Below the pieces are notes generated by a model that was not told the origin of the DNA, did no database searches, and saw only the letters and a list, made by a program, of their open reading frames with translations. Positions 3,529 to 27,114 of a DNA stretch of 64,000 nucleotides are shown here, one piece after another (the first letter of the stretch is position 1; every line of letters begins with the position of its first letter). The stretch spans positions 7,715-71,714 of the forward strand of contig CAYOEN010000002.1 in NCBI GenBank assembly GCA_964403085.1, given 5' to 3'. This DNA is from an uncultured Faecalibacterium sp. Its GTDB lineage: Bacteria; Bacillota; Clostridia; Oscillospirales; Acutalibacteraceae. The position numbers were made by a program, and so were the translations under genes.

Positions 3529-3557
3529 TTGACAATTCTTCAGTCAGGTGCTACAAT
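3529..3557 (+). promoter_or_regulatory. sigma-A-type promoter of the B12-regulated operon
   Basis: TTGACA (3529-3534), 17-nt spacer, TACAAT (3552-3557), placed just upstream of the riboswitch. Confidence 0.6.
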
Positions 3558-3567
3558 TAAATTCAAT

Positions 3568-3657
3568 CAAAGCTCAGTGGGGAAATACCGGTGAAAATCC
3601 GGAGCAACCGCCATTGCCGTTATCAGCTTTTTGCTGTCAGTCGGAATGCCCGCTTTG
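3568..3657 (+). promoter_or_regulatory. cobalamin (B12) riboswitch aptamer
   Basis: Hallmark strings GGGGAAATACCGGTGAAAATCCGG (3579-3602) and B12-box-like GTCAGTCGGAATGCCCGC (3636-3653). Candidate P1 is CAAAGC/GCTTTG (3568-3573/3652-3657). Confidence 0.8.
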
Positions 3658-3716
3658 CTTTTTGCTTTTCGTATTCACTTTTGGGCAATTGGAAGAGTGA
3701 GCGGCCGTAGGTTACT

Positions 3717-3752
3717 GCGCCCTTTTTTTGCTCAAAAAGGGCGCTTATTTTT
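3717..3752 (+). terminator. riboswitch expression-platform intrinsic terminator
   Basis: Stem GCGCCCTTTT / AAAAGGGCGC followed by TTATTTTT, ending about a dozen nt before the first gene start. Confidence 0.75.
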
Positions 3753-3765
3753 ATGGGGTGATGAT

Positions 3766-5085
3766 TTGAAAAGATTTTTTTCCTTATTCTTCGCGTTTTG
3801 CTTGCTTGTAAGTTTCTGCTTCTTCGTGTCGGCAGACAACAGCTCACAGAAGTACATAACTTCAGCTCTCACACCAACTGATTCGGCAACTCTCAAATGG
3901 TCAAAAAAACTCGGTGGAGGCTTTGCTGCCTCGCCGACAGCTCCGCTTGTTGTCGGTGATACTCTGATAGTTGCTTCGGGAAAAACAATTTATAAGCTGA
4001 ATTCAAAAACAGGTGATGTTTTACAAAGCAACGAAATGCTCGGTTCTCTCGGGTATGCGGTTGTTGCTCCAACCTACGCCGAAAACAAAATTTTTATTCA
4101 GCTTAACGGTGGAAAGATACAGGCGTTTGATTTTGAAACTCTTGATTCACTGTGGCTTTATACTGATGCGCTTGGTGGTCAGGCGCTGTCTCCGATTGTC
4201 TGCGATGACGGCTATATTTATACCGGTTTTTGGAACGGTGAAGACGATAATGCAAACTTTGTCTGCCTGAGCACAAAGGACGAACAACCAAACAAGAAAA
4301 ACGAAAAAAAGAAAGCCAAATGGGTCTATCGAAGCAAAGGCGGTTTTTATTGGACCGAAGCGGCAGTTACAAAGGGATATGTAATTTTCGGTACCGATGA
4401 CGGGAACGATGGAACCGGCGCCGAGTCGCGCATCGTTTCGCTCAATAAAAAGAACGGCAAACTTTCTTCTTCGCTCAGAACAAAAGGGGATATTCGTTGC
4501 GCAGTGACCTATGATAAGGAGAACGGATTTTATTTCACGGCGAGCAAGTCGGGCTTTGTTTATCGCTTTAAATTCAATGAAGAAACAGGAGAGCTTCGCA
4601 ATCTGAAAAAATATAAAACCGGGGGCGAAGTCACGTCTTCACCCGTTGCACACAACGGACGAATATATTTTGCCTGTCAAAACGGAAAGAGCGGAAAGTT
4701 CGTTGTTGTGGAAGAAAAGACAATGAAAAAAATATATGATTGTCAGATGCTCGGTTATTCTCAGTCAACGCCTTTGATTTCGGTTGCGTATAAAGATGTT
4801 GTTTATGTTTACATGACCTACAACGAAAAGCCCGGAGGAATCACGGTCTTTAAAGATTCTTCCAATCAAACCGAAGCGATAAAAACGGAACTTTTTGAAC
4901 CTTCCGGCGACGCTTCTCAGTATTGTATTTGTTCCGTAACGGCGGACGAAAACGGCAATCTTTTCTATAAAAACGATTCGGGTACAATATTTGCTGTCGG
5001 AAAGAAAAGCAACTCGCTCTTAACGAAGATACTGAACATTCTTTTTCGAGCGATAATTCGTTTCGCTTCCGGGATAATATCATGA
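3766..5085 (+). CDS. secreted PQQ-like beta-propeller repeat protein
   Basis: A TTG start at 3766 gives signal peptide MKRFFSLFFAFCLLVSFCFFVSA. Repeated blade-like motifs are GKIQAFDFETLDSLWLY, GYVIFGTDDG, GFVYRFKF, GRIYFACQNG and GNLFYKNDSGTIFAV. The track ORF start 3631 runs through the riboswitch and is not credible. Confidence 0.7.
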   Translation: MKRFFSLFFAFCLLVSFCFFVSADNSSQKYITSALTPTDSATLKWSKKLGGGFAASPTAPLVVGDTLIVASGKTIYKLNSKTGDVLQSNEMLGSLGYAVVAPTYAENKIFIQLNGGKIQAFDFETLDSLWLYTDALGGQALSPIVCDDGYIYTGFWNGEDDNANFVCLSTKDEQPNKKNEKKKAKWVYRSKGGFYWTEAAVTKGYVIFGTDDGNDGTGAESRIVSLNKKNGKLSSSLRTKGDIRCAVTYDKENGFYFTASKSGFVYRFKFNEETGELRNLKKYKTGGEVTSSPVAHNGRIYFACQNGKSGKFVVVEEKTMKKIYDCQMLGYSQSTPLISVAYKDVVYVYMTYNEKPGGITVFKDSSNQTEAIKTELFEPSGDASQYCICSVTADENGNLFYKNDSGTIFAVGKKSNSLLTKILNILFRAIIRFASGIIS

Positions 5086-5954
5086 AAATCGGAGCACGGG
5101 GAATACACCCGTTTTCTGCTGCTGTTTTCTTTGCCGTTGTTTTTGTAATAACACTGCTAACATTGAACCCATATCTGCTCGCAATCAGCTTTTTGAGCGG
5201 CTTTATGTTTGATATTAATCTTCGGGAAAAAAAGGCAATCAAAGAACTATGTTGTCTTTCGGCGATAGCTGTCGTTATAGTGCTTTTTAATACGCTTTTT
5301 GCGCACTATGGTGTTACGGTTTTGTTTACTCTTAAACGCGGAAACAACATAACTCTCGAAGCTTTTGTTTGCGGCGCGGTTTATGCTGTTCGCTTTGTTT
5401 CAACAATGATTTGGCTTTCATGTTTCAATGAAGTTGTTGACGAAGAAAAGTTCCTTTTCCTTTTCGGACGTCTTTCGCCGAGGCTTGCGCTCGTTACGTC
5501 AATGGTGCTTCGATTTTTGCCGCTTGTGTCTCGTTACACTGCCGAAACGCAAAAGGCGTGTCGCGGGATCGGGTCGGACAGTTCTGTCGGTTCGATATAT
5601 GTTCGTTTGAAAAACGCAACACGAATAGTTTCAATAGTTATTTCAAGACTGCTTGAACACGCTGTTGACACAGCCAATTCAATGATGGCACGCGGCTATA
5701 CACTCAAGGGGAGAACGAGTTGCCGCGTCTATCCGTCAAGAATTATTGATGCGCTTCTGGTCAGCGTCTCAGGCCTCTCTGCTTTGCTCATTTTATCCCT
5801 TAACGACAGCGTTGCCGCGCAGTATAATCCGATTATAATTATCGCGCCCTTTTCTCTAAGGTGCGCCACCGTTTGCCTTGGTTTTACAGTGCTGTGCTTT
5901 TTGCCGCTTGCTTTTGATATAACGGAGAAAAAAATATGGTCGATTTCAAATTAG
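5082..5954 (+). CDS. ECF transporter transmembrane (T) component, CbiQ/EcfT family
   Basis: Polytopic membrane protein with the conserved Ala-Arg-Gly coupling motif (SMMARGY). Its ATGA start overlaps the upstream stop. Confidence 0.85.
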   Translation: MKIGARGIHPFSAAVFFAVVFVITLLTLNPYLLAISFLSGFMFDINLREKKAIKELCCLSAIAVVIVLFNTLFAHYGVTVLFTLKRGNNITLEAFVCGAVYAVRFVSTMIWLSCFNEVVDEEKFLFLFGRLSPRLALVTSMVLRFLPLVSRYTAETQKACRGIGSDSSVGSIYVRLKNATRIVSIVISRLLEHAVDTANSMMARGYTLKGRTSCRVYPSRIIDALLVSVSGLSALLILSLNDSVAAQYNPIIIIAPFSLRCATVCLGFTVLCFLPLAFDITEKKIWSISN

Positions 5955-7600
5955 AAAACTTTTCTTTTTCGTTTCCGAATGGGACGAGTGCACTCAAAAA
6001 CATTAATCTTGAAATAAATCGCGGAGAACTTGTTGTTGTTTGCGGTCGAAGCGGCAGCGGAAAGACAACGCTCCTTCGGCTTTTAAAGCCGCAACTCAAA
6101 CCACATGGAAAACAAAGCGGGTCGCTTTCGATCTTTCAAAAAGATGAAAGCGAAATCTCTCTTCGCGATTCCGCTTCGCTGATTGGATTTGTGATGCAAA
6201 ATCCGGAGCTTCAATGTGTAACGGATACCGTGCAGTCCGAGCTGTGTTTCGGACTTGAAAATCTCGGTTTTGACCGAAAGGCTGCTCAGTTAAGAGTGGC
6301 GGAAACGGCGGCTCTTTTTTCGCTTGAAAACCTTTTAGACAAAAAAACAGCCGAGCTGTCAGGCGGACAAAAACAATTTGTGAATCTCGCTTCGATTGTT
6401 GCGATGAATCCCAATGTTCTGTTGCTTGACGAACCTACTGCACAGCTCGATCCGGTTTCAGCTCAAAGACTCATTGACCTTGTGTGTATGCTTTGCCGTG
6501 AATACGGGGTTACCGTTATTATTTCAGAGCACCGACTGGAAAAGCTCGTTGCCGTTGCCGACCGACTCGTTGTTCTCGAAAACGGCAAAATCATAAACAA
6601 CAGCGCTCCGCGAGATGTGAGCTATGAAGTTATGAAAATGAATGAATTAGTGCGTTTGAGCTTGCCGTTTTATATGCGCCTTAATTATGAACTTGGGCTT
6701 TTTGAAAAAATGCCGACCGATATGAAATCCGGTCGTGCGCTTGTTTCAAATATTCTCAAAAGCGCAACCGCAGTTGAACCGTTTTTGTCACCGGAAAGCG
6801 AAAAAGCCGAATTGGCGGTCAACATTAAAAATCTGTATTATTCATATGATGCAAAAAACTACGTTTTAAAAGGGCTCGACCTTCAGATCAAGAAGGGGAG
6901 TTTCTTTGCTATACTCGGTTCGAACGGAGCGGGAAAAACAACTCTGCTCAATCTTATCGGCGGACTGCTCAAATCAAAAAGAGGGAAGCTTGAACTGTTT
7001 TCAAAAAGCATTTCAAAGTATTCGACGTCTGAGCTTTATAACGAAAACGTTGCCTTCCTCCAACAAAATTGTGAGTCGATTTTTGCGGGTCCAACCGTTC
7101 AAGAGGATTTTGAAAATATTTTAAGAAGCAGCGAATACACACGCAGCCAAATTGAAGAACGCATTAAAAGCGTCAGCTCTTTTTTCGAAATTAAGGAATT
7201 GCTTCTCTCTCATCCATATGATTTGAGCGGAGGCGAGTTGCAACGTTGTGCCCTTGCTGCTGTGATGTTGAAAAACGCGCGTCTTCTTTTGCTTGATGAA
7301 CCGACAAAAGGATTGGACGTTCTTTTCAAAAATCAACTTGCAACGCAGCTTCGCCGACTTTGTTCCGCCGGCACAACGGTAGTCATCGTTTCTCACGACA
7401 CCGAGTTTTGCGCAAAATACTGTGATGAATGTGCGCTGATTTTTGACGGCAGGGCTGTTTCTCAAGGCGTCACCCATGAGTTCTTTTCTAACAACTGTTT
7501 CTATACCACAGCTGCAAGCAAATTGATGCGGGGAATAGTCGATAATGTCGTTACCGAGGAAGAGGTGATTGAACTTTGCAAAAAGAGTATAAATGGTTAA
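5936..7600 (+). CDS. ECF transporter fused double ATPase (EcfA-EcfA' type)
   Basis: Two ABC cassettes with Walker A GRSGSGKTT and GSNGAGKTT, signatures LSGGQKQ and LSGGELQ, and Walker B LLLDEPT twice. Confidence 0.9.
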   Translation: MVDFKLENFSFSFPNGTSALKNINLEINRGELVVVCGRSGSGKTTLLRLLKPQLKPHGKQSGSLSIFQKDESEISLRDSASLIGFVMQNPELQCVTDTVQSELCFGLENLGFDRKAAQLRVAETAALFSLENLLDKKTAELSGGQKQFVNLASIVAMNPNVLLLDEPTAQLDPVSAQRLIDLVCMLCREYGVTVIISEHRLEKLVAVADRLVVLENGKIINNSAPRDVSYEVMKMNELVRLSLPFYMRLNYELGLFEKMPTDMKSGRALVSNILKSATAVEPFLSPESEKAELAVNIKNLYYSYDAKNYVLKGLDLQIKKGSFFAILGSNGAGKTTLLNLIGGLLKSKRGKLELFSKSISKYSTSELYNENVAFLQQNCESIFAGPTVQEDFENILRSSEYTRSQIEERIKSVSSFFEIKELLLSHPYDLSGGELQRCALAAVMLKNARLLLLDEPTKGLDVLFKNQLATQLRRLCSAGTTVVIVSHDTEFCAKYCDECALIFDGRAVSQGVTHEFFSNNCFYTTAASKLMRGIVDNVVTEEEVIELCKKSING

Positions 7601-8301
7601 AAGTTGTTTCTCCGATCTCTCTTTTTGTCCTTGCCCCGATTTTCGCCTTTATTTGTTGCAAGGTTTTCGACCCGAAATATTACTACATTTCAGCAACTGT
7701 TATAATTGTTCTTGCAATTTTGCCGTTTTTTGTAATGTTTGAAAAACGAAAGCTTAGCACAATAGAACTTGTCACTGTCGCCGTTATGGTGGCGGTTTGC
7801 AGCGGTTCACGACTCGCTTTTTCGTTTCTTCCACAGTTCAAACCGATGTGTGCGCTTGTTATCATTGCAGCATCCGCTTTCGGCGAAAACATCGGCTTTA
7901 TCGTTGGCGCAATGTCTGTGTTTGTTTCAAATTTCGCTTTTGGCCAGGGTGCGTTTACACCGTTTCAAATGCTCGGAATGGGGCTTGTTGCGTTTTTGTG
8001 CGGTGCTTTGTTTCACAACAAAATTCTCGGCAAAAACCGCTTGGCAGTCAGCGTTATCGGCACCGTCCTTACGTTCTTCGTGTATGGCGTAATCGTTGAC
8101 AGCGCCTCTGTTTTCATGATGACAACGGAGTATACATTTGAAAAAATCATTGGTATTTACGCTTCGGGAGTCGGTTTTAATTTGATTCATGCGATTACAA
8201 CCGGAATTGTTTTGTTCCTGTTTTACAAACCTATGATAAACAAACTTTCGCGTCTTAACGTTAAATACGGAATATTTGCTTTTTCCGCTGATTGGAGGTA
8301 A
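7576..8301 (+). CDS. polytopic membrane protein, candidate ECF substrate-capture (S) component
   Basis: 241 aa and about 6-7 hydrophobic helices with no soluble domain. It overlaps the ATPase gene end inside the ECF operon. I could not assign a family by eye. Confidence 0.5.
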   Translation: MQKEYKWLKVVSPISLFVLAPIFAFICCKVFDPKYYYISATVIIVLAILPFFVMFEKRKLSTIELVTVAVMVAVCSGSRLAFSFLPQFKPMCALVIIAASAFGENIGFIVGAMSVFVSNFAFGQGAFTPFQMLGMGLVAFLCGALFHNKILGKNRLAVSVIGTVLTFFVYGVIVDSASVFMMTTEYTFEKIIGIYASGVGFNLIHAITTGIVLFLFYKPMINKLSRLNVKYGIFAFSADWR

Positions 8302-8305
8302 AACT

Positions 8306-9025
8306 ATGAAAAGAATTTTTTCGCTATCAATGAGTGTGCTTTTAATACTTTTTTTGACCGCTTGCTCCGGTTTTAAAAGTGAACCCGAAACAACGCTTTC
8401 GACAATCGGCTCATCGTTACAATATGAGAGTTCCAAAAGCGAGGGTTCAACCACAAATTCAACACCGACAACCTATTCGTCAACGACCGCAACGAAGCCC
8501 AGCGCAACTCAGAACATTAAAACCTCGGAAACGACTTCGGAAGTTTTAATGAGTTCAACAGCGCAAAAGACTGAAACAAACGTTGAAGAGACGACCGAAA
8601 GCTCTTCAATAACCTGTTATGTCACGATTGATTGCACAAAAATTCAGGAAAATTTTGAAGAATTGAACAAAAGCAAAAGGAGTTTTGTTCCTTCAAACGG
8701 CTACATATTAAAAGATGCCGCTGTTGAACTCAAAGAGAACGAAAGCGCGTTTGATGCACTCAAAAAAGCTTGCGCTGAATATTCATGTACCGATAACTGC
8801 AAATACTGCCAAAAGGACGGCATTCAGCTCGAATATTCTTATACGCCGGCGTATCATTCTTATTATGTTGAAGGAATTCATCAGCTTTATGAAAAGGATT
8901 GCGGCGATCTTTCAGGTTGGCTGTTTTGCGTTAACGACGCTCTTGCCGAAAGCGCTTCCAGTTCTTATTATCCTCAAAACGGCGACAAAATTATGTTCAC
9001 TTACACTGTTTCAATGGACTTTTGA
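8306..9025 (+). CDS. lipoprotein with transcobalamin-like DUF4430 domain
   Basis: ATG 8306 follows GGAGG. Lipobox in MKRIFSLSMSVLLILFLTAC, then a Ser/Thr-rich linker. C-terminal domain carries GDLSGWLFCVND...NGDKIMFTYT, as in DUF4430. Confidence 0.65.
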   Translation: MKRIFSLSMSVLLILFLTACSGFKSEPETTLSTIGSSLQYESSKSEGSTTNSTPTTYSSTTATKPSATQNIKTSETTSEVLMSSTAQKTETNVEETTESSSITCYVTIDCTKIQENFEELNKSKRSFVPSNGYILKDAAVELKENESAFDALKKACAEYSCTDNCKYCQKDGIQLEYSYTPAYHSYYVEGIHQLYEKDCGDLSGWLFCVNDALAESASSSYYPQNGDKIMFTYTVSMDF

Positions 9026-9063
9026 ACAGTGTTTGTAGATAAATTCAGAAAGGAAGACAAAAC

Positions 9064-9867
9064 ATGAAAACACTCAAAAAAACAACGGCATTGCTTCTTT
9101 CTCTCTTGATGCTTGTATCCTGCTTTGCAGCTTCGGTATCAGCGGCGGGAAAGATAACAGTCAAACTTCGAATCGAAGGCATCAACGCCTGTCAGTATTA
9201 CAGCTATGTAACTGTTGACAGCGGTTCAACGGTACTTGACGTTGTTAAGCAGGCGGACTCAATCGATTCAACCCTTACCGTCACGGTGGTTGAAAGCAAG
9301 TACGGTGATTACATTTCGGAAATCAATGGCGAGAAAGAAAAAACCTTTAAAGGTTGGGACGGCTGGCTTTACAGAGTAAACAATGCCGAACCCGAAGTTG
9401 GTGTTGCGGCTTACACCGTTTCCGATTCCGACAGCATTGTTGTTTATTACGGCGATCCTTACGGCGTCGGAATGCAATATCCGGAAATCAACGTTGACGC
9501 TCTTTCTGACGGAAAAATTTCGTTTACGAGCCTTGATACCGTATATGGTGATAACTCCGTTCCCATAACAACGCGCAATTCCGTTACCGGCTACACTCTT
9601 ACATGGGGATATAGCAATTCAAAGACTGTTAAGGTGACTCCGGACGAAAACGGCGTTTGCACCATTGATGAGCGGTATCTCACAAATGAAGCGCACAGCG
9701 TTCAAATTGAGCGTTATGCACCCAACGGTTGTCCGACCGTTTTAAGGCTTGAACCGGATTTTTATGTTGGCGAAAAAGTTACCGAAAACTTTATTTATGA
9801 GCTTTTCACTACGCTCAAAAACTTCTTTAATAAGATAATCAACTTCTTCAAGTCACTCTTTAACTGA
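9064..9867 (+). CDS. secreted DUF4430 domain protein with extra C-terminal domain
   Basis: Signal peptide ending VSA-AGK. DUF4430-like core GWDGWLYRVNN...SDSIVVYYGD, then an additional ~120-aa domain and an amphipathic C-terminal tail. Confidence 0.65.
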   Translation: MKTLKKTTALLLSLLMLVSCFAASVSAAGKITVKLRIEGINACQYYSYVTVDSGSTVLDVVKQADSIDSTLTVTVVESKYGDYISEINGEKEKTFKGWDGWLYRVNNAEPEVGVAAYTVSDSDSIVVYYGDPYGVGMQYPEINVDALSDGKISFTSLDTVYGDNSVPITTRNSVTGYTLTWGYSNSKTVKVTPDENGVCTIDERYLTNEAHSVQIERYAPNGCPTVLRLEPDFYVGEKVTENFIYELFTTLKNFFNKIINFFKSLFN

Positions 9868-9928
9868 AAATTGAGATTGGCATAAAAACACATAATAAGC
9901 AACAATCAAAGCTTATTGACGACATCCT

Positions 9929-9968
9929 AAACGGCTTGTGTATCCCCTTTATACACGAGCCGTTTTTT
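9929..9968 (+). terminator. intrinsic terminator ending the B12 operon
   Basis: Stem AACGGCTTGTGTAT / ATACACGAGCCGTT followed by a T6 run. Confidence 0.8.
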
Positions 9969-10076: not shown

Positions 10077-11489
10077 ATGCAAAAGAAAAAAATCTCTTTG
10101 CGCCTTTGGTTCAACATCATTCTTTTCGGTTTGATGGGTCAGATCGCCTGGAATATGGAGAATATGTACTTTAACACATTTCTCTATAACAACATTTATT
10201 CAAATGGCGCTTCGCAAGCCGCCGTCAATTCCGCAATTCCGTACACAACGGCAATCAGCCTTATGGTTGCGCTTAGCGCAATTACTGCCGTTGTAACGAC
10301 TTTTATCATGGGTACGCTCAGTGACAGATTGAACAAACGAAAGGTTTTCATTTCTATCGGATATATAATTTGGGGACTCATCACCGCTTCTTTCGGGTTG
10401 ATTTCTCGCGACAACGTTGCTTCGTTGTTCCATCTTTCCGATGAGGTTCAAATTCTTACCGCTACCGTATGGACCGTAATCGTTATGGACTGTGTCATGA
10501 CATTTATGGGTTCAACAAGCAACGACTCCGCCTTCAACGCTTGGGTCACAGATATCACCGAGCCCGAAAACCGTCCTGCTGTTGAAACTGTTTTTGCCGC
10601 TTTACCAGTTATAGCCATGGGGCTTGTTATTGCTTTCGGTTCGCTCGCTCAGGCGGGAACTGTCACATATACACTTTTCTTCGGTGTGCTCGGCATGATC
10701 GTTGCCGTTTGCGGTGTTGTCGGTCTTTTCACTCTTGAAGAACCGAAACACAAAATTCAACAAAACACAAATTCCAATTATTGGTCGGATCTCTTTTACG
10801 GTTTCAGACCTTCTGTTATAAAAGAGAACGCGCGTCTTTATCTCGTTCTTTTGGCAAGCTGCATTTTCGCCGTTGCAACTCAGGTTTATTTCCCATATCT
10901 TTTGATCTATCTTCAATATGTTGTTTTGCCGATGGCGGGCGATAACCTTCTTTCTGTTCCCGTTATAATAAGCGCAATTGCTTCCGTCGCGATGATGATC
11001 GGGGGAATCGTTGCAATTTTGAAGCTTAACAAAAAACTCAGCAGGGGAACACTGCTTGTTGTTGCGCTTCTGTGCTCTGTAATCGGTCTTTTCATGTTGG
11101 GCTTTTCCAAAAATATTGTAATGCTTCTCATTTCCGCAGCGCCTACGGTCGTCGGCTATGCCACTCAGGGTATTTTGATCAATGCCACTATCAGAGACTT
11201 CACGCCGGAATCTAAGGCGGGTCAGTTCCAGGGGGTAAGAATGATTTTCGGTGTTCTCATCCCGATGGTTCTCGGACCTGTCACCGGCGCACTTGCCATT
11301 GAGCGTTCCGCTGTTACATATGTTGATGAATACGGAACGATGCAAACCGTTCCGACGGAACTCATGTTTACCTTCGCCGCAATTGTTTCGATCTTGGCCG
11401 TCATTCCTCTTGCGATTCTCATCAAGAAAGGCATTCTTTCAAAACCGGCCGGAGCAGAGAAAGAAGATGAATTGACAGAAACGGCGTAA
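10077..11489 (+). CDS. MFS transporter
   Basis: 470 aa, about 12 hydrophobic helices, and an MFS-like loop GTLSDRLNKRK after TM2. Confidence 0.8.
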   Translation: MQKKKISLRLWFNIILFGLMGQIAWNMENMYFNTFLYNNIYSNGASQAAVNSAIPYTTAISLMVALSAITAVVTTFIMGTLSDRLNKRKVFISIGYIIWGLITASFGLISRDNVASLFHLSDEVQILTATVWTVIVMDCVMTFMGSTSNDSAFNAWVTDITEPENRPAVETVFAALPVIAMGLVIAFGSLAQAGTVTYTLFFGVLGMIVAVCGVVGLFTLEEPKHKIQQNTNSNYWSDLFYGFRPSVIKENARLYLVLLASCIFAVATQVYFPYLLIYLQYVVLPMAGDNLLSVPVIISAIASVAMMIGGIVAILKLNKKLSRGTLLVVALLCSVIGLFMLGFSKNIVMLLISAAPTVVGYATQGILINATIRDFTPESKAGQFQGVRMIFGVLIPMVLGPVTGALAIERSAVTYVDEYGTMQTVPTELMFTFAAIVSILAVIPLAILIKKGILSKPAGAEKEDELTETA

Positions 11490-11510: not shown

Positions 11511-12527
11511 ATGAAGGGACAAACGAAGCTGAAGCTTCTGTATATTAAAGATTACCTTGAAAAATACAGCGATGAAAATCATCCTGTCAGCGCGGAAATT
11601 TTGCAACAGATGCTTGAGCGTAACGGAATCGTTTGTGAACGCAAGTCAATTTACAGCGACGTTCAAGCCCTCAGAGATTACGGAATGGAGATTTTTCGCG
11701 TCAGGGCACCCGGAAACGGTTATTATCTCGCTTCCAGAGAATTTGAAGAGCCGCAGGTTCGACTTCTGGTTGACGCCGTTCAGGCAGCGAGCTTTATTAC
11801 CGAAAAAAAGACTAAGGAACTTGTCAAAAAAATCGCTTCGCTTTGCAGCGAAAGCGAGGGCAGGCAGTTGACCCGTCAGGTATATATCGAAAATCGTGTC
11901 AAGTGCTCCAACGAAGAGATATACTATAGCATTGACGTTTTGAGCCGCGCAATCAAAGCGAGGAAAAAAGTTGCGTTTGTTTATTGCAAACGTGTTATTG
12001 CCGAAGATACAGGAGCAATAAAAATCAACGAACGACGCCATATTGTCAGTCCGTATGCACTCATTTGGTCCAACGATCATTATTATCTCGTTGCCAACAA
12101 TCAAAAATATGATAATTTGATGCATACTCGTATTGACAGAATGAAACGAGTTGAAATGCTCAATGAAACCATCAGACCGTTTGGCGAAGTTTCAACATAT
12201 CGCAGCTTTTTTGATTCGGCGGACTACGTCAGTAAGCTTTTCAATATGTTCAGTGGAACGATTCAGTCGCTTGATATTCTTTGTGACAACTCGATTCTCG
12301 AAGAAATTCTTGACCGTTTCGGCACGAATACGCTGATAACAAAAGATATAGACGAAAACCGTTTTCGCCTCAGAACGAAGCTCGCGGTCAGTGAAGGTCT
12401 CATTTCGTGGCTGATGCAATTCGGCGAAAAACTCGAGGTTCTCGAGCCGCTCTCTTTGCGCACTCAGATCAAAGAAAAAGCGAAAGAAATTCTCGGGGTA
12501 TATAAAGACGAAAGTGTTTTTGGCTGA
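11511..12527 (+). CDS. HTH-WYL domain transcriptional regulator
   Basis: N-terminal winged HTH, central WYL-domain region SPYALIWSNDHYYLVANN, and a WCX-like C-terminal domain. It lies 21 nt after the MFS gene. Confidence 0.85.
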   Translation: MKGQTKLKLLYIKDYLEKYSDENHPVSAEILQQMLERNGIVCERKSIYSDVQALRDYGMEIFRVRAPGNGYYLASREFEEPQVRLLVDAVQAASFITEKKTKELVKKIASLCSESEGRQLTRQVYIENRVKCSNEEIYYSIDVLSRAIKARKKVAFVYCKRVIAEDTGAIKINERRHIVSPYALIWSNDHYYLVANNQKYDNLMHTRIDRMKRVEMLNETIRPFGEVSTYRSFFDSADYVSKLFNMFSGTIQSLDILCDNSILEEILDRFGTNTLITKDIDENRFRLRTKLAVSEGLISWLMQFGEKLEVLEPLSLRTQIKEKAKEILGVYKDESVFG

Positions 12528-16427: not shown

Positions 16428-16551
16428 CAACAAAGAGCCAAGTGTGTTTTTCTAACGTTGTTTAATTTTTTATCATTGTAAAATTTTTGTAAAGGTGATA
16501 AAATTGAACCGACGATATCAGTCGTCAGACACTGAATATGGAGGAATATTG

Positions 16552-18486
16552 ATGAAAAAATTAGTTTCGCTCATTCTTTGCCTTGCGTTAATATTTTCAC
16601 TCGGGAACGTTGTCTCGGCAAAGTTCGATAAGGATGATTACAACGGATATCCGGTAGTAGTTGTTGCCGGTTATAGCTCTTCTGCTATGTACAGACTTGA
16701 CAGCAACGGAGAAAAAATCCATGTTTGGGGCGTTGATTTCGACGAGATAATTGCCGCTCTTTTCAAAAACATCGTTGAAGTCGGTATCGACATCGGCGCA
16801 TTGGCAACGGGAAACGGGAAAGCACTCGGTGAAACAGTCGGCAGAGAGTTTGTGAAGCTCTATTATGATATGGCCTGCAATCCAGACGGTTCGAGCGTTT
16901 ATCAGCTTGAACGATACTGCGTTACTGCCGAAGAAAGCAATCGCGCTTTGATGCTTGAAAAATATGACGGAGACCTTATTTATCAGCATGAAACGGAAAT
17001 AATGGGCGAATATGCCGAATACATCGGTGACGAAAACATTTATAACTTCAATTGCGATTTCAGAATGGGTGCTGTATTCTGCGCGCAGCAGCTCGATGAA
17101 TTCATTCAATCGGTAAAAGAGCACTCGGGAAAAGATAAGGTCAACATTTTTGCCGTCTCGCACGGAGGTCAGGTCACCGGTACATATCTGACTCTTTACG
17201 GCGAAAAAGGCGATGTTGAAAATGCCGTTATGACCGTTCCCGCTCTTGGAGGTGCCGGTCTTGCGTATAACATTCTTGCGGATAATATCGAATTTGACGA
17301 AGAGGGTCTTGTTCGTTTTGTTGAACACGGAATGATGGCCGAAACCGATTACAATTGGCTTGTTCGCGCAAACGAACTCGGTTTTCTTGATGAGGTGCTC
17401 AATGCGCTGGCACCTTATGCGAGACAGATTCTCGGTTATTGGGGCAGCATTTGGGATTTCTGTCCGACAGAGTATTATGAAGAAATGAAAGAAAAGTTGC
17501 TTGATCCTGTTGAAAGCGCCGAACTCATCGAAAAAAGCGACTATATGCATTATAATGTTATGACCGATTTTTCAAACGGCTTCAAGCGTGCTCAACAGGT
17601 AGGCACCGATGTCTATATTGTTGCCGGTTATGATAATAAAATCGTTACCGGTTTGAACGAAAGCTCGGATGGTATTATCACAATTGCCGCTTCAACAGGT
17701 GCAACAGCCGCTCCTCTCGGGAAGCGTTTTGCCGATGGTTATACGCAAATAAACGACACAGGCTTTTATCAGGTTTCTCCGTCGATGACTGTGGACGCTT
17801 CGACGTCTTATTTGCCGAACCACACTTGGTTTGTTGAAAACTTTTATCACGGAATGATATATAAAGATCCATACACCGCCGAACTGTTAAAAACATTACT
17901 CCTGACTGAAAAAATTGATGATGTTCATTCATCGTCTCTGTATCCGCAGTTTCACGCAACAACCAATAAATCACACTCTGTCCACGCAATGTTCAACAGC
18001 AGCACCGAAGGCTACCTTTCTTCAAAAGACAGTGCGTTAGTGGTTCAGAATCTTTCGGAAAAATATAAGATGAAAATAACCGCAATCACCGTAAGGGGAA
18101 TGGACCTTGAGTTTCCTTCTTCGATTTTCACTGAACTTATCGAGCCGGGAGAAAGCATTGAAATTAAATACAGCGGCGATATTCCCAAGATTTCTCTTGC
18201 AAATTTTGAACTCGTGGTTGATTATGCACTTATCGGAAGCGTTACACCGCTTGGCGAAAGAATATTTGATTTCACTTTGATGAACGGCGAAAACGTTGTC
18301 TTTGACGAATCAACGCCACTTGTTTCAGCGAGCTTTGTCGGTGATTTTGACTCCCTGCTCGACGAAGAAAGCAACAATATTCTCAACCAAACCGGAAGCA
18401 AAAGCTTTTTTGAAATGCTTTATAACGTTGTCTATCCGATAGTGAAATGGATAGCACAGCTCGTTGAAATGTTTAAAAATCTTTGA
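16552..18486 (+). CDS. secreted alpha/beta-hydrolase (lipase/esterase-like)
   Basis: ATG 16552 follows GGAGG. Signal peptide MKKLVSLILCLALIFSLGNVVSA and nucleophile-elbow-like AVSHGG (AxSxG). A large C-terminal beta-rich region ends in an amphipathic tail. Confidence 0.65.
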   Translation: MKKLVSLILCLALIFSLGNVVSAKFDKDDYNGYPVVVVAGYSSSAMYRLDSNGEKIHVWGVDFDEIIAALFKNIVEVGIDIGALATGNGKALGETVGREFVKLYYDMACNPDGSSVYQLERYCVTAEESNRALMLEKYDGDLIYQHETEIMGEYAEYIGDENIYNFNCDFRMGAVFCAQQLDEFIQSVKEHSGKDKVNIFAVSHGGQVTGTYLTLYGEKGDVENAVMTVPALGGAGLAYNILADNIEFDEEGLVRFVEHGMMAETDYNWLVRANELGFLDEVLNALAPYARQILGYWGSIWDFCPTEYYEEMKEKLLDPVESAELIEKSDYMHYNVMTDFSNGFKRAQQVGTDVYIVAGYDNKIVTGLNESSDGIITIAASTGATAAPLGKRFADGYTQINDTGFYQVSPSMTVDASTSYLPNHTWFVENFYHGMIYKDPYTAELLKTLLLTEKIDDVHSSSLYPQFHATTNKSHSVHAMFNSSTEGYLSSKDSALVVQNLSEKYKMKITAITVRGMDLEFPSSIFTELIEPGESIEIKYSGDIPKISLANFELVVDYALIGSVTPLGERIFDFTLMNGENVVFDESTPLVSASFVGDFDSLLDEESNNILNQTGSKSFFEMLYNVVYPIVKWIAQLVEMFKNL

Positions 18487-23222: not shown

Positions 23223-24110
23223 ATGAAAATTATAAACATCTTAAACGACGAAAAGCCGTCAATTTCTTTTGAGGTCTTTCCGCCGAAAAAAGAGTCGTCT
23301 TTCGCTTTGGTGAAAGATGCTGTTAAAAAAATCGCCGCCATAGGTCCTTCCTATATGAGCGTCACTTACGGCGCCGGCGGCGGTACAAGTAAATATACGC
23401 TTGACATTGCGAAAAGCATCAAAGAGCAGTACGGCGTCGAAACCGTCGAACATTTAACCTGCGTTTCTTCTTCAAGGGAAACGATTCTCAATCAGATTGA
23501 AGCAATAAAAGCCGGCGGCGTTGAAAACATTCTCGCGCTTCGCGGCGATATTCCCGAAGATATGCTTTCCTTCGACAGAAGCAATTGGAAATACAGTCAC
23601 GCCACTGAGCTCATTCGCGAGATAAAGAAAATATATCCCGAATCCTGTGTCGGAGCTGCCTGCTATCCTGAAATTCATCCCGAAAGCAAGAGCAGCAAAG
23701 AAGATATTTTCTACCTAAAAGAGAAAGTTCTTGTCGGTTGTGAATTTCTGACCACACAGATGTTTTTTGACAATTCGTTGCTTTACAGTTTTTTGTATCG
23801 CCTTCGAGAAGCCGGTGTTACCGTTCCCGTTGTCGCGGGTATAATGCCAATCACAAACGCCAATCAGGTTGAACGCGCAATAAAACTTTCCGGTTGTCAT
23901 ATGCCTCAAAGGTTTATAAGTCTTGTTGACCGATTCGGTTCAGATCAGAATGCCATGAAACAGGCCGGAATAGCCTATGCGACCGATCAGATAATTGATT
24001 TGTTTGCCAACGGAGTAAGTAATGTTCATGTCTACTCGATGAACAAGCCCGACGTTGCCGAAAAAATATATCGCAATCTTTCAGACATAATTGGTAAAGA
24101 ATATGAATAA
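23223..24110 (+). CDS. metF: methylenetetrahydrofolate reductase
   Basis: N-terminal SFEVFPPK motif and MTHFR TIM-barrel length (295 aa). Confidence 0.9.
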   Translation: MKIINILNDEKPSISFEVFPPKKESSFALVKDAVKKIAAIGPSYMSVTYGAGGGTSKYTLDIAKSIKEQYGVETVEHLTCVSSSRETILNQIEAIKAGGVENILALRGDIPEDMLSFDRSNWKYSHATELIREIKKIYPESCVGAACYPEIHPESKSSKEDIFYLKEKVLVGCEFLTTQMFFDNSLLYSFLYRLREAGVTVPVVAGIMPITNANQVERAIKLSGCHMPQRFISLVDRFGSDQNAMKQAGIAYATDQIIDLFANGVSNVHVYSMNKPDVAEKIYRNLSDIIGKEYE

Positions 24111-24705
24111 TATTGTGTTTAGGTCTTATACCGATATTCCGGTTAACCGCCGTGAAGTTTTCAGATATATGCATTGCGAAACACCGGATGAAACGATGAA
24201 CTTGCTTTTAAACGACTGCATTGAAGAGGCTGCCGGCGTTTTAAGTTATAAAACCTGCTTTTGTGAATTTCTTCTTTCGATTCAAGGCGATGAACTCAAT
24301 CTTGGCTTTTCGGTCGTAAAAAGCAAAGCGTTGTCAATCAATCTGAAAGGCTGTGAACGTGTCATACTTTTCGCCGCAACGATCGGTCATGACATGGATC
24401 GTCTCATAAAGAGAACTTCACTGCTTTCTCCTTCAAAGGCGGTTTGCTTTCAGGCTCTCGGCAGTGAACGAGTTGAAAGCTTGTGTGATACTTTAAACAG
24501 TGAATTAAAAGCAAAATATGGTGAGCTTGGCTATTCACTTAAACCACGCTTCAGTCCGGGATATGGCGACTTACCGCTTTTGCTTCAAAAAAGCATTATG
24601 CCGGTTCTTGATTGCAAAAAATTACTCGGAATTACTTTAATGGATAATCTTATGATGGCGCCGTCGAAATCTGTCACGGCGCTAATCGGCGTGTATAAAC
24701 GATAA
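24103..24705 (+). CDS. stand-alone methionine synthase activation (AdoMet-binding) domain protein
   Basis: About 200 aa. ATG 24103 overlaps the metF stop (ATGAATAA). Position directly before a MetH that lacks its activation domain. The family call is from context and general resemblance. Confidence 0.65.
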   Translation: MNNIVFRSYTDIPVNRREVFRYMHCETPDETMNLLLNDCIEEAAGVLSYKTCFCEFLLSIQGDELNLGFSVVKSKALSINLKGCERVILFAATIGHDMDRLIKRTSLLSPSKAVCFQALGSERVESLCDTLNSELKAKYGELGYSLKPRFSPGYGDLPLLLQKSIMPVLDCKKLLGITLMDNLMMAPSKSVTALIGVYKR

Positions 24706-24720
24706 GGCAGGTGAATACCT

Positions 24721-27114
24721 TTGAACATTCGCAGCTTGTTAAACAGACAATTTATAATTCTTGACGGTGGATTTGGCACTTTCCTTCAAAACGAAGGCTT
24801 GAAACCCGGCGAACACACCGAAGCCTGGAATTTAAGCCATCCAGATGTTGTTCAAAGTGTTCATAAAAAATATTTTGATGCAGGCAGTAACATTGTCTGC
24901 GCCAACACTTTCGGCGCGAATGCGCTTAAATATTCCGACGAAGAACTCGAAGAAATTATTCGAGCCGCGCTTTTCAACGCAAGACAGGCAGCAAAAGCTT
25001 CTTCGGCTCCGCAGGAAAAATTTGTTGCGCTTGACATCGGCTCTCTCGGAAAGCTGTTAAAACCGTTCGGTGATCTTGATTTTGAAACCGCTGTTTCGGT
25101 TTTCGCGAAAAGTGTTCGCTTCGGTGAAAAACACGGTGCAGATCTTATCTTTATAGAGACGATGAACGACAGCTATGAAACTAAGGCCGCTCTCCTGGCT
25201 GCAAAAGAGAACAGCTCGTTGCCGGTCTTCGTCACCAACGCCTACAGTGAGGACGGAAAATTAATGACAGGCGCAACACCGCAGGCGATGGTTGCCATGC
25301 TCGAAGCCATGGGCGCGGATGCTGTCGGCGCAAACTGTTCCCTTGGTCCGAAGCAGCTTGAAGCCGTTGCAAAACAGATGCTTTCCTGCGCTTCGGTTCC
25401 GATAATTATGAAGCCGAACGCCGGCATGCCGCGAACAGTTGACGGAAAAACAGTTTTTGACGTCTCTGCCGACAGTTTTTGCGAAGAAATGGAAAAACTT
25501 GCGTCCCTTGGTGTTTCCGTTCTCGGCGGCTGTTGCGGAACAAACGACAGATACATCGAAAAACTTGCCGATAAAGTTAAAAACGTCTGCTTTTCGCCGA
25601 TTCAAGAGAAAAGCATGACGGTGGTTTCTTCTTACACGCACGCCGTTTCGTTCGGTAAAAAGCCATTGCTTATCGGTGAAAGGATCAATCCGACCGGCAA
25701 AAAGCGTTTTAAACAGGCGTTGCTCGAAAACGATATCGGTTATATCTTGCGCGAAGGACTTTCGCAACAGGAAAACGAAGCGGACATTTTGGATGTTAAT
25801 GTCGGCATACCGGAGATTGATGAATCGCGAATGCTGACAACTGCTGTTTTTGAGCTTCAAAGCATTATTGACCTTCCGTTACAAATAGATACATCGGATA
25901 TTGCGGCGATGGAATCCGCGCTCAGAATATACAACGGAAAAGCCATGATAAACTCCGTCAGCGGCAAGCAGGAAAGCATGGATGCGGTTTTTCCGCTCGT
26001 AAAAAAATACGGCGGCGTTGTAACTGCTTTGACCCTGGACGAAAACGGAATACCCGAAACCGCCGAAGAAAGATTTAAAATCGCCGAAAAAATCCTCAAC
26101 AGAGCCGCTGAATACGGAATCGACAAAAAGAATATTGTTTTTGATACGCTTGCAATGGCTGTGAGCGCAGAACCTACCGCGGCTCGAGTTACCATTAATT
26201 CGCTCGAAAAAATCCGTCGCGAGCTCAAATGTCATACAAGCCTGGGCGTTTCAAATGTTTCTTTCGGCTTGCCGGGTAGGGGAATGTTGAATTCTTCCTT
26301 CTTTCTCCTTGCTCTCGAAGCCGGTCTTTCGGCGGCAATATTGAATCCTCTCAGCGAAGACATGAAAAGAGCGTACAAATCCTATTGTGCCCTTTGCGGT
26401 TATGACGACGGATTTAAGAAGTATATTGAATTTTCTTCACTGAATCAAACTGAACCTTCAAATGTTAAAAACGCGAACGCCGGGGACACCTCTTCTCTTT
26501 TGCGCTGCGCTATTGAAAAAGGATTGAAGGAAGAGGCGGGTGAACTTTGCTCTTTGCTCCTTCGTGAAAACGATGGACTTCAAATTATTCGCAACATTGT
26601 CATTCCGGCTCTTGATACGGTCGGACGCGGCTTCGAAGAAAAAAGTTTATATCTTCCGCAGCTTTTGATGAGCGCCGAAGCAGCAAAAGCCGCTTTCGAA
26701 AAAATCAAGGCTTCGCTTTCAAAAAACGAAAAAGCGGAACCTTCTGCCTCTTTTCCGATCGTGCTTGCCACTGTTAAAGGTGACGTTCATGATATTGGAA
26801 AGAATATTGTTAAGCTTCTTTTGGAAAACTACGGCTATGAAGTCATTGACCTCGGAAAAGATGTTTCCGAAGAAAAAATCGTTAAAGCTGCCATTGAAAG
26901 CGGTGCGAAACTTGTCGGCTTAAGCGCTTTGATGACAACTACCGTTCCGGCTATGGAAAAAGCTATAAAAGCACTTAATCAATCTGTGCCCGATTGCAAA
27001 ACCGTTGTAGGCGGCGCCGTTCTGACAAAGGAATATGCCGAAAAAATCGGTGCCGATAAGTATTCGAAAGATGCCATGGAGACCGTGAGATACGCCGAAG
27101 CATTGTCAAAATAA
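24721..27114 (+). CDS. metH: cobalamin-dependent methionine synthase (Hcy, pterin, cap and B12 domains; no activation domain)
   Basis: Zn-site GGCCGT, a pterin-binding barrel, B12 motif GDVHDIGKNIV (DxHxxG) and SALMTTT. Starts at TTG after AGGCAGGTG. Confidence 0.9.
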   Translation: MNIRSLLNRQFIILDGGFGTFLQNEGLKPGEHTEAWNLSHPDVVQSVHKKYFDAGSNIVCANTFGANALKYSDEELEEIIRAALFNARQAAKASSAPQEKFVALDIGSLGKLLKPFGDLDFETAVSVFAKSVRFGEKHGADLIFIETMNDSYETKAALLAAKENSSLPVFVTNAYSEDGKLMTGATPQAMVAMLEAMGADAVGANCSLGPKQLEAVAKQMLSCASVPIIMKPNAGMPRTVDGKTVFDVSADSFCEEMEKLASLGVSVLGGCCGTNDRYIEKLADKVKNVCFSPIQEKSMTVVSSYTHAVSFGKKPLLIGERINPTGKKRFKQALLENDIGYILREGLSQQENEADILDVNVGIPEIDESRMLTTAVFELQSIIDLPLQIDTSDIAAMESALRIYNGKAMINSVSGKQESMDAVFPLVKKYGGVVTALTLDENGIPETAEERFKIAEKILNRAAEYGIDKKNIVFDTLAMAVSAEPTAARVTINSLEKIRRELKCHTSLGVSNVSFGLPGRGMLNSSFFLLALEAGLSAAILNPLSEDMKRAYKSYCALCGYDDGFKKYIEFSSLNQTEPSNVKNANAGDTSSLLRCAIEKGLKEEAGELCSLLLRENDGLQIIRNIVIPALDTVGRGFEEKSLYLPQLLMSAEAAKAAFEKIKASLSKNEKAEPSASFPIVLATVKGDVHDIGKNIVKLLLENYGYEVIDLGKDVSEEKIVKAAIESGAKLVGLSALMTTTVPAMEKAIKALNQSVPDCKTVVGGAVLTKEYAEKIGADKYSKDAMETVRYAEALSK

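Follow-up and report, generated by a model that had tools for sequence, protein, structure and literature searches.

A probable corrinoid scavenging and import operon behind a short cobalamin-clan riboswitch in an uncultured Faecalibacterium

We analyzed a 64,000-nucleotide stretch of DNA from an uncultured Faecalibacterium sp. (contig CAYOEN010000002.1), the whole of which is called the window here, and examined a six-gene operon and its leader near the 5' end of the window. The operon probably encodes a corrinoid scavenging and import system of a Gram-positive Acutalibacteraceae-like bacterium, which would be switched off in the presence of intracellular cobalamin. It joins a cobalamin-clan riboswitch to an energy-coupling factor (ECF) transporter, a secreted beta-propeller, and two extracytoplasmic proteins with the transcobalamin-like DUF4430 domain. 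One lipid-anchored protein and two proteins probably tethered by amphipathic helices would be held at the membrane outside the cell, where the two DUF4430 proteins and the propeller would probably capture scarce external corrinoids and pass them to the S-component of the transporter, so that all three would be corrinoid-binding proteins. The six open reading frames (ORFs) of the operon and its terminator are given below.

3766-5085, + strand: secreted 8-bladed BamB/PQQ-like beta-propeller of 439 amino acids with a signal peptide (PQQ_2/BamB-like domain; predicted structure with a mean predicted local distance difference test score, pLDDT, of 88.1)
5082-5954, + strand: EcfT of the CbiQ family, the transmembrane coupling subunit (CbiQ at 25.9 bits against a cut-off of 25; conserved position)
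5936-7600, + strand: fused EcfA-EcfA' double ATPase of 554 amino acids (346.7 bits for TIGR04520 and 337.8 bits for TIGR04521, both above cut-off)
7576-8301, + strand: CbrT-like ECF S-component of 241 amino acids (PF07155 at 34.9 bits against 26.7)
8306-9025, + strand: lipoprotein with the lipobox LTAC, a Ser/Thr-rich linker (45% Ser+Thr), and a C-terminal DUF4430 domain (Pfam)
9064-9867, + strand: secreted DUF4430 protein with a signal peptide, a transcobalamin beta-like domain, a beta-sandwich, and a C-terminal amphipathic helix
9929-9972 (stem 9929-9965), + strand: intrinsic terminator at the end of the operon, with a 15-bp stem and a T-run

The tight packing of the six genes, with overlaps of 4, 19, and 25 nucleotides, and the final terminator were found where the original prediction had placed them. 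Profile searches against Pfam and NCBIfam confirmed the PQQ_2/BamB-like propeller, CbiQ, the double ATPase, the S-component, and both DUF4430 proteins.

The leader, which lies directly 5' of the first gene, contains a promoter, a short aptamer, and an expression platform, as follows.

3529-3557, + strand: sigma-70-type promoter TTGACA-17-TACAAT with a TG-extended -10 element (11 of 12 consensus matches, the top promoter-like site of the region)
3568-3657, + strand: short-type cobalamin-clan aptamer (sub-threshold RF00174 match, covariance model R1 of this analysis, and covariation)
3568-3572 with 3653-3657, + strand: aptamer helix P1
3577-3581 with 3649-3653, + strand: aptamer helix P2 (C3653 is counted in both P1 and P2, as alternative registers)
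3588-3591 with 3599-3602, + strand: aptamer helix P3
3609-3612, + strand: aptamer loop L5
3617-3619 with 3642-3644, + strand: aptamer helix P6
3624-3636, + strand: small hairpin in the aptamer
3676-3699, + strand: P13 hairpin of the expression platform (conserved; all 7 stem pairs with changes on both sides)
3717-3754 (stem 3717-3744), + strand: intrinsic terminator of the leader, with an 11-bp stem, 6 G-C pairs, and a T-run

Direct reading of the sequence placed the promoter, the quoted aptamer string GGGGAAATACCGGTGAAAATCCGG (3579-3602), the B12-box-like segment GTCAGTCGGAATGCCCGC (3636-3653), the closing helix CAAAGC/GCTTTG (3568-3573 and 3652-3657), and the leader terminator at the coordinates expected for them. 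Transcription would start at about position 3564. The regulated element of the leader is the intrinsic terminator at 3717-3754, which ends about 12 nucleotides 5' of the TTG start codon at 3766; this codon is preceded by GGGGTGA. The loop of P13 (G3684-G3685-C3686) is complementary to L5 (G3610-C3611-C3612) and forms a kissing loop with it.

The Rfam scan gave no match to a cobalamin family at gathering score in the whole window, and the same kind of scan gave no cobalamin match in the related loci L001, L002, and L006; permissive local scans and a covariance model of our own were therefore used. With permissive filters, RF00174 scored 28.1 bits on the window leader (E = 1.5e-5), so that the match to this model that had been predicted fell short of the gathering score of 31.5 bits. 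The 62-position P6 extension of RF00174 was replaced by 7 nucleotides in this alignment, whose 5' end lay spuriously in the promoter, the aptamer proper spanning about 3568-3657. The leaders of operons with S-components that are 45-47% identical scored 29.0-33.2 bits with RF01689, which is sub-threshold.

The claim that the leader is a genuine cobalamin-clan riboswitch was borne out by comparative evidence, with the refinement that it belongs to a short subtype. The 31-nucleotide aptamer core GGTGNNAAYCCNNNGCAANNGYCATTNCYGT recurs 5' of a dozen homologous operons, and at least 120 loci were found when this core was compared as a bare DNA pattern with metagenomes. The covariance model R1, which was built in this analysis from four seeds, scored 146.8 bits on the window leader and up to 155 bits elsewhere. 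All of its matches lay on the strand of the operon and directly upstream of it. Counted over all searches, the short-subtype element precedes operons of this type in more than 130 loci. In the R1 alignment (94 instances, 73 distinct sequences), standard pairs were present in 90.9% of the cells versus 74.3% in column shuffles, and none of 500 shuffles reached 90.9%. Double-change cells numbered 390 versus 118 expected, and changes on both sides were seen in 20 of the 29 pairs. As a control, the 3' partners were slid by 1 to 3 columns, which gave pairing of 25-50%. Compensatory changes were present in P2, P3, and P6, in the small hairpin of P6, and in each of the seven P13 pairs. The kissing loop also covaried: L5 is GCC or, in some lineages, GUC, together with GGC or GAC in the P13 loop, and the central pair was CG in 47 cases, UA in 13, UG in 6, and other in 1. 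P13 and L13 were not included in the search pattern that retrieved the loci. P1 was left out of R1 because MAFFT gave no in-register P1 across the seeds; the comparison of own-flank with crossed-flank duplex energies (p = 0.004) gives it modest support.

What anchors the subtype in the cobalamin clan is that some relatives pass the curated Rfam thresholds, namely, L121 and L184 with RF01689 (43.6 and 41.0 bits) and L110 with RF00174 (46.5 bits). Among 20 sampled loci (L089-L209), 17 were below the Rfam 15 gathering thresholds, and all 20 scored 41-110 bits with R1. These comparisons indicate that the leader riboswitch is real and that its short subtype is mostly missed by Rfam thresholds; B12 regulons in gut Clostridia are thus probably under-annotated.

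The leader would bind cobalamin and control expression of the operon through its terminator. With B12 bound, L5 would kiss the P13 loop and P13 would be locked, the terminator would form before the first gene, and the operon would be off. Without B12, the P13 bases (L13 and the 3' strand) could instead pair with the terminator region, allowing transcription to read through. When a transcript truncated at 3736 was folded, 3679-3687 paired with 3729-3736 and GGAAG paired with CUUUU, which is a weak alternative.

Two cobalamin-type aptamers about 500 nucleotides apart were observed in L006 (4587-4663 and 5086-5169) and also in L014. The paired aptamers flank a gene of 93-95 amino acids with a homing-endonuclease-associated repeat (PF18780), which is also found in L207 (7710-7997). 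This gene is located 5' of the propeller gene in L207, whereas in L006 it is located 5' of a 322-amino-acid gene that itself lies upstream of the propeller. The 322-amino-acid gene is preceded by the second L006 aptamer, and its product is a secreted protein with no Pfam match.

The presence of a dedicated ECF T/A-A'/S module, another claim of the original prediction, held up, as the subunit families were above the Pfam and TIGR cut-offs. With T, two ATPase domains, and S encoded together, the transporter is assigned by its gene content to ECF group I, the group of dedicated modules. The T/A-A'/S gene order is conserved in 71 related genome loci. When the family profile of the S-component was compared with the PDB, 6FNP chain A (CbrT) matched with E = 4.2e-16 and the next S-components matched at 3e-4 or worse; no curated CbrT-specific Pfam or NCBIfam model was matched by the window S-component. 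The CbrT family was reportedly predicted by Rodionov et al. in 2009. Because the operon has a B12 riboswitch and its S-component is homologous to CbrT, we infer that the substrate of the transporter is a corrinoid.

Residues 1-56 of the S-component (7576-7745) form an N-terminal extension relative to CbrT (182 amino acids) and contain two strongly hydrophobic segments. This suggests that the S-component has eight membrane helices instead of six. A few homologues of the S-component also match PF20221 (DUF6580). In 31 of the 71 related genome loci, EcfA-A' and the S-component are encoded as one ORF of about 830-950 amino acids with two ABC_tran domains and PF07155 (for example, L024 8192-10690 and L152 7191-10031); in the window, the two genes instead overlap by 25 nucleotides in different frames. 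On the prevailing view, S-components topple and in many systems come off the module, which makes a covalent ATPase-S fusion notable.

The two DUF4430 proteins had been predicted to be transcobalamin-like, and this agrees with both profile and structure comparisons. DUF4430 (PF14478) scored 39.2 and 49.6 bits in the two window proteins against a gathering score of 23.8. The structure of the secreted protein was predicted with a pLDDT of 87.9, and its modelled DUF4430 domain superposed on 5NO0 with a template modelling (TM) score of 0.84 and a root-mean-square deviation of 1.6 Å at 24% identity. The beta domains of transcobalamin, haptocorrin, and intrinsic factor were the top 17 structural matches of the modelled domain, and the profile of the secreted protein matched haptocorrin with E = 2.5e-4. 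According to this model, the DUF4430 domain of the secreted protein is structurally a transcobalamin beta domain; that of the lipoprotein is assigned by Pfam as a transcobalamin beta-like SLBB domain. No Prenyltrans or SQHop_cyclase domain, the alpha/alpha-toroid, was found by Pfam among the six window proteins. In full transcobalamin and intrinsic factor, the corrin is sandwiched by an alpha/alpha-toroid and the beta domain, and the toroid is absent from the window operon. Single-sequence PDB searches with the propeller, the secreted DUF4430 protein, and the lipoprotein were uninformative, and profiles and predicted structures were needed. An exact-sequence look-up of the secreted DUF4430 protein returned no record, and literature searches on DUF4430 and PF14478 found no functional study.

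Amphipathic helices are present at the C termini of the propeller (residues 418-438, 5017-5082) and the secreted DUF4430 protein (residues 243-266, 9790-9864). These helices are conserved, with a hydrophobic moment of about 0.65 and the consensus FFxxIxxFIKxLF in the DUF4430 family. They may serve as an in-plane membrane tether or as a transporter docking element.

The propeller had been likened to BtuG, which captures B12 in Bacteroides, and was confirmed only as a propeller. Its closest structures among the best 50 Foldseek matches were 8-bladed BamB, tetrathionate hydrolase, and PQQ dehydrogenases (TM score up to 0.78 on the target), and its profile matched solely BamB, PQQ-type, and designed 'Cake' propellers among PDB sequences. 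Kinship with BtuG was rejected, as no BtuG or BtuK was present among the best 50 Foldseek matches or the profile matches; being 8-bladed and BamB/PQQ-like, the propeller resembles BtuG by analogy alone. Pfam DUF5074 matched it weakly (25.3 bits against a cut-off of 27.2). The 377 propeller homologues detected were all unnamed or generically named, and a propeller of about 440 amino acids was located inside such operons in 13 of the 13 contexts examined.

The operon type is conserved behind B12 riboswitches across Firmicutes, as had been expected. About 90 of the 120 pattern-derived metagenomic loci listed have a DUF4430 gene directly downstream of the riboswitch, and ecfT, ecfA, and CbrT-like ecfS usually come next where the contig continues. 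Minimal loci consist of the riboswitch, a small DUF4430 lipoprotein, and a solitary 182-amino-acid S-component whose sole PDB match is CbrT. In a one-genome-per-species collection, relatives of the S-component were found in at least 594 stretches, with Clostridia, Paenibacillus, Cohnella, Tissierella, Christensenella, and others as hosts. Accessory genes were counted in 60 species-level loci with at least 3 kb upstream: DUF4430 was in the operon in 48, a propeller-domain protein in 12, and both in 11. Of 15 distant operons sampled from the S-component family, 11 have a classical RF00174 element at 35-119 bits directly 5' of the first gene. The link between B12 riboswitch, DUF4430, and CbrT-like ECF transporter is robust, and it was found whichever component served as the search query.

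Related loci also tie the propeller to the DUF4430 proteins. L027 encodes a DUF4430 domain and a PQQ-type propeller in one polypeptide, and L209 (7771-10857) encodes propeller-DUF4430-DUF4430 behind the same riboswitch (110 bits), with no ECF genes in the 11.3 kb of sequence covered. On the evidence of this fusion and this trio, the propeller is functionally tied to DUF4430. Because the L209 trio has no adjacent ECF genes, the three extracytoplasmic proteins are a module whose genes can stand separately from those of the transporter. More distant operons encode, where the propeller would be, giant SLH-anchored proteins of 1300-1900 amino acids with Ig-like, alpha/alpha-toroid (Prenyltrans/SQHop_cyclase), and DUF4430 domains (L020 691-6447 and L021 2450-6349). 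Judged by their domain content, these would be in effect cell-wall-anchored bacterial transcobalamins.

Several points weigh against a corrinoid scavenging and import system under riboswitch control. ECF transporters normally work without extracytoplasmic binding proteins, and the accessory proteins are dispensable for the core transporter because 12 of the 60 related operons lack DUF4430. As to the leader, the window aptamer and 17 of its 20 sampled relatives fail the curated Rfam threshold, and the covariation alignment was fitted to the R1 model; because many of its sequences are related, there are fewer independent compensatory events than the cell counts suggest. The minimum-energy fold of the full-length leader always contains the terminator, regardless of ligand, and the antiterminator is weak and appears only in folds of truncated transcripts, so that the switch would have to be kinetic. 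In addition, the only experimentally studied relative of the architecture, the Lactobacillus sakei operon lsa1836-1840 (S-component, AA' ATPase, T, and transcobalamin beta- and alpha-like proteins), was found to be genetically needed for heme uptake and assigned to it (bioRxiv 10.1101/864751).

An alternative that keeps the ECF transporter as a corrinoid importer is that the accessory proteins do not form a capture relay and act instead as scaffolds or cell-wall passage factors, strip B12 from carrier proteins of the host or the diet, sequester corrinoids in competition, or store them at the surface. The BamB-like fold, which is typically a protein-protein scaffold, would fit such roles, as would the operons without DUF4430, the L209 trio without adjacent ECF genes, and the Bacteroides surface proteins BtuK2 and BtuL, which bind no B12 (PMC13616437). 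However, the accessory and transporter genes are tightly coupled translationally in the window, the minimal loci combine a DUF4430 lipoprotein with a CbrT-like S-component that stands alone, and DUF4430 has the fold of a transcobalamin beta domain. We consider this alternative unlikely.

It is less probable still that the system serves another substrate, such as heme as in L. sakei, and that the B12 riboswitch merely coordinates its expression. Deletion of the five-gene cluster in L. sakei impaired heme uptake and complementation restored it (bioRxiv 10.1101/864751), and DUF4430 and SLBB domains are generic soluble-ligand binders (PMC1796856). In contrast, cobalamin riboswitches, either of the short subtype or matching RF00174, are located upstream of most sampled operons of the S-component family, the closest solved S-component is the B12/cobinamide transporter CbrT, and the term riboswitch is absent from the L. 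sakei paper (bioRxiv 10.1101/864751). This pervasive riboswitch control argues against heme as the substrate of the operon family to which the window operon belongs. That the leader is a non-functional remnant or a chance resemblance, with the operon constitutive or otherwise regulated, would agree with its score under the Rfam gathering threshold and its lack of the P6 extension of RF00174 but is scarcely credible: more than 130 loci have the element in an equivalent position, its helices and the kissing loop all show compensatory changes, and relatives reach the RF01689 or RF00174 gathering score.

For the corrinoid scavenging and import system, a more specific arrangement can be proposed tentatively, and we regard it as doubtful: the propeller and an SLBB protein would sandwich the corrinoid and hand it to the 8-helix CbrT-like S-component, as a Gram-positive counterpart of the Bacteroides relay. 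The propeller may provide the other side of the binding sandwich, a role that falls to an alpha/alpha-toroid both in transcobalamin itself and in the giant surface proteins of related operons. This speculation is based on the L027 fusion and on the way in which propellers and toroid-bearing proteins complement each other in their distribution. If true, no ECF transporter before this one would have been shown to rely on dedicated external capture proteins for B12, and the use of a propeller for B12 binding would be convergent. The system is compact and testable, as it comprises a single riboswitch, a single ECF importer, and three surface proteins of small size. The locus thereby opens two questions to study: do transcobalamin-like proteins of bacteria really bind B12 and supply it to an ECF transporter, and what does the propeller contribute?

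Elsewhere in the window, a B12-dependent MetH gene was found downstream, as predicted, at 24721-27114 (S-methyl_trans, Pterin_bind, B12-binding_2, and B12-binding domains), with MTHFR just upstream; it is counted as support, in that MetH represents a physiological demand for B12. A 204-amino-acid ORF between MTHFR and MetH (24091-24705) and a 663-amino-acid ORF (16495-18486) had no Pfam match at E <= 1e-5. The major facilitator superfamily gene at 10077-11489, which directly follows the operon, was rejected as an operon member, as a strong terminator lies between and the gene is not conserved in related loci. The ORF after it (11511-12527) has a counterpart on the near-identical contig L001 that is annotated as a WYL-domain protein.

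The original prediction knew of no characterization of the combined architecture, which had however been recognized before: it was predicted by Burroughs, Balaji, Iyer, and Aravind in 2007 (PMC1796856), and the related L. sakei operon has been studied experimentally. [quoted passage not shown] The kind of system was thus predicted by comparative genomics in 2007, and its corrinoid role is a predicted one. The new elements are a stand-alone 8-bladed propeller as a conserved third partner, membrane tethering that probably relies on amphipathic helices at the C termini, a riboswitch subtype that is widespread, combines a kissing loop with a terminator platform, and scores below Rfam thresholds, and A-A'-S fusions in relatives. 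A 2026 review called extracellular cobamide capture in Gram-positive Firmicutes "entirely uncharacterized" (PMC13616437).

The operons of Burroughs et al. resemble the window operon in their secreted DUF4430/SLBB proteins, often paired, with CbiQ- and CbiO-like genes and in some cases joined to a propeller; riboswitches were not analyzed there. In contrast to these operons, the window operon has no alpha/alpha-toroid, its propeller is a separate conserved gene, and its surface proteins are tethered by a lipid or an amphipathic helix, where those of Burroughs et al. have SLH or sortase anchors. L. sakei lsa1836-1840, when the architecture alone is compared, shares an S-component, AA' ATPase, T, and transcobalamin beta-like protein in one operon but differs in its assignment to heme uptake, in having an alpha-like (toroid) partner instead of a propeller, and in that no B12 riboswitch was reported for it.

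Among riboswitches, the closest comparison is with the class-II type (RF01689, clan CL00101), of which the L5-L13 kissing loop is a hallmark. The window leader shares with it a short aptamer without the large P6 extension, a conserved core, and a kissing loop to a downstream hairpin, and the relatives L121 and L184 pass RF01689. The ribosome-binding site sits in the kissing-loop hairpin in structurally studied class-II switches, whereas in the window a separate intrinsic terminator follows this hairpin. The window leader and most members of the subtype also differ in scoring below both the RF01689 and the RF00174 gathering thresholds.

ECF-CbrT of Lactobacillus delbrueckii (6FNP), which transports cobalamin and cobinamide (Santos et al. 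2018, PMC5997447), is likewise an ECF-type ATP-binding cassette importer with a CbrT-like S-component in a B12-related family context. CbrT is a solitary 182-amino-acid S-component that shares a general module (group II), and its gene is located in an nrdJ-cbrS-cbrT-pduO cluster. In contrast, the window S-component has 241 amino acids and is encoded with T and fused AA' genes dedicated to it (group I), and three extracytoplasmic proteins are co-encoded with it.

In Bacteroides, a surface relay of BtuG, BtuH, BtuJ, and BtuK captures cobamides (PMC13616437). The relay of Bacteroides thetaiotaomicron differs from the window system in its parts: BtuG and BtuK are 7-bladed, BtuJ has DUF4465, BtuH has its own fold, DUF4430 is not among them, and the transporter is TonB-dependent BtuB with BtuFCD in a diderm envelope. 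The organism type of the window has no outer membrane and no BtuB, unlike the Bacteroidota partner system of BtuG. The likeness lies in riboswitch-controlled operons in which several surface proteins, including propellers, serve a membrane transporter. In the gut, Firmicutes and Bacteroidota are competitors for one corrinoid pool.

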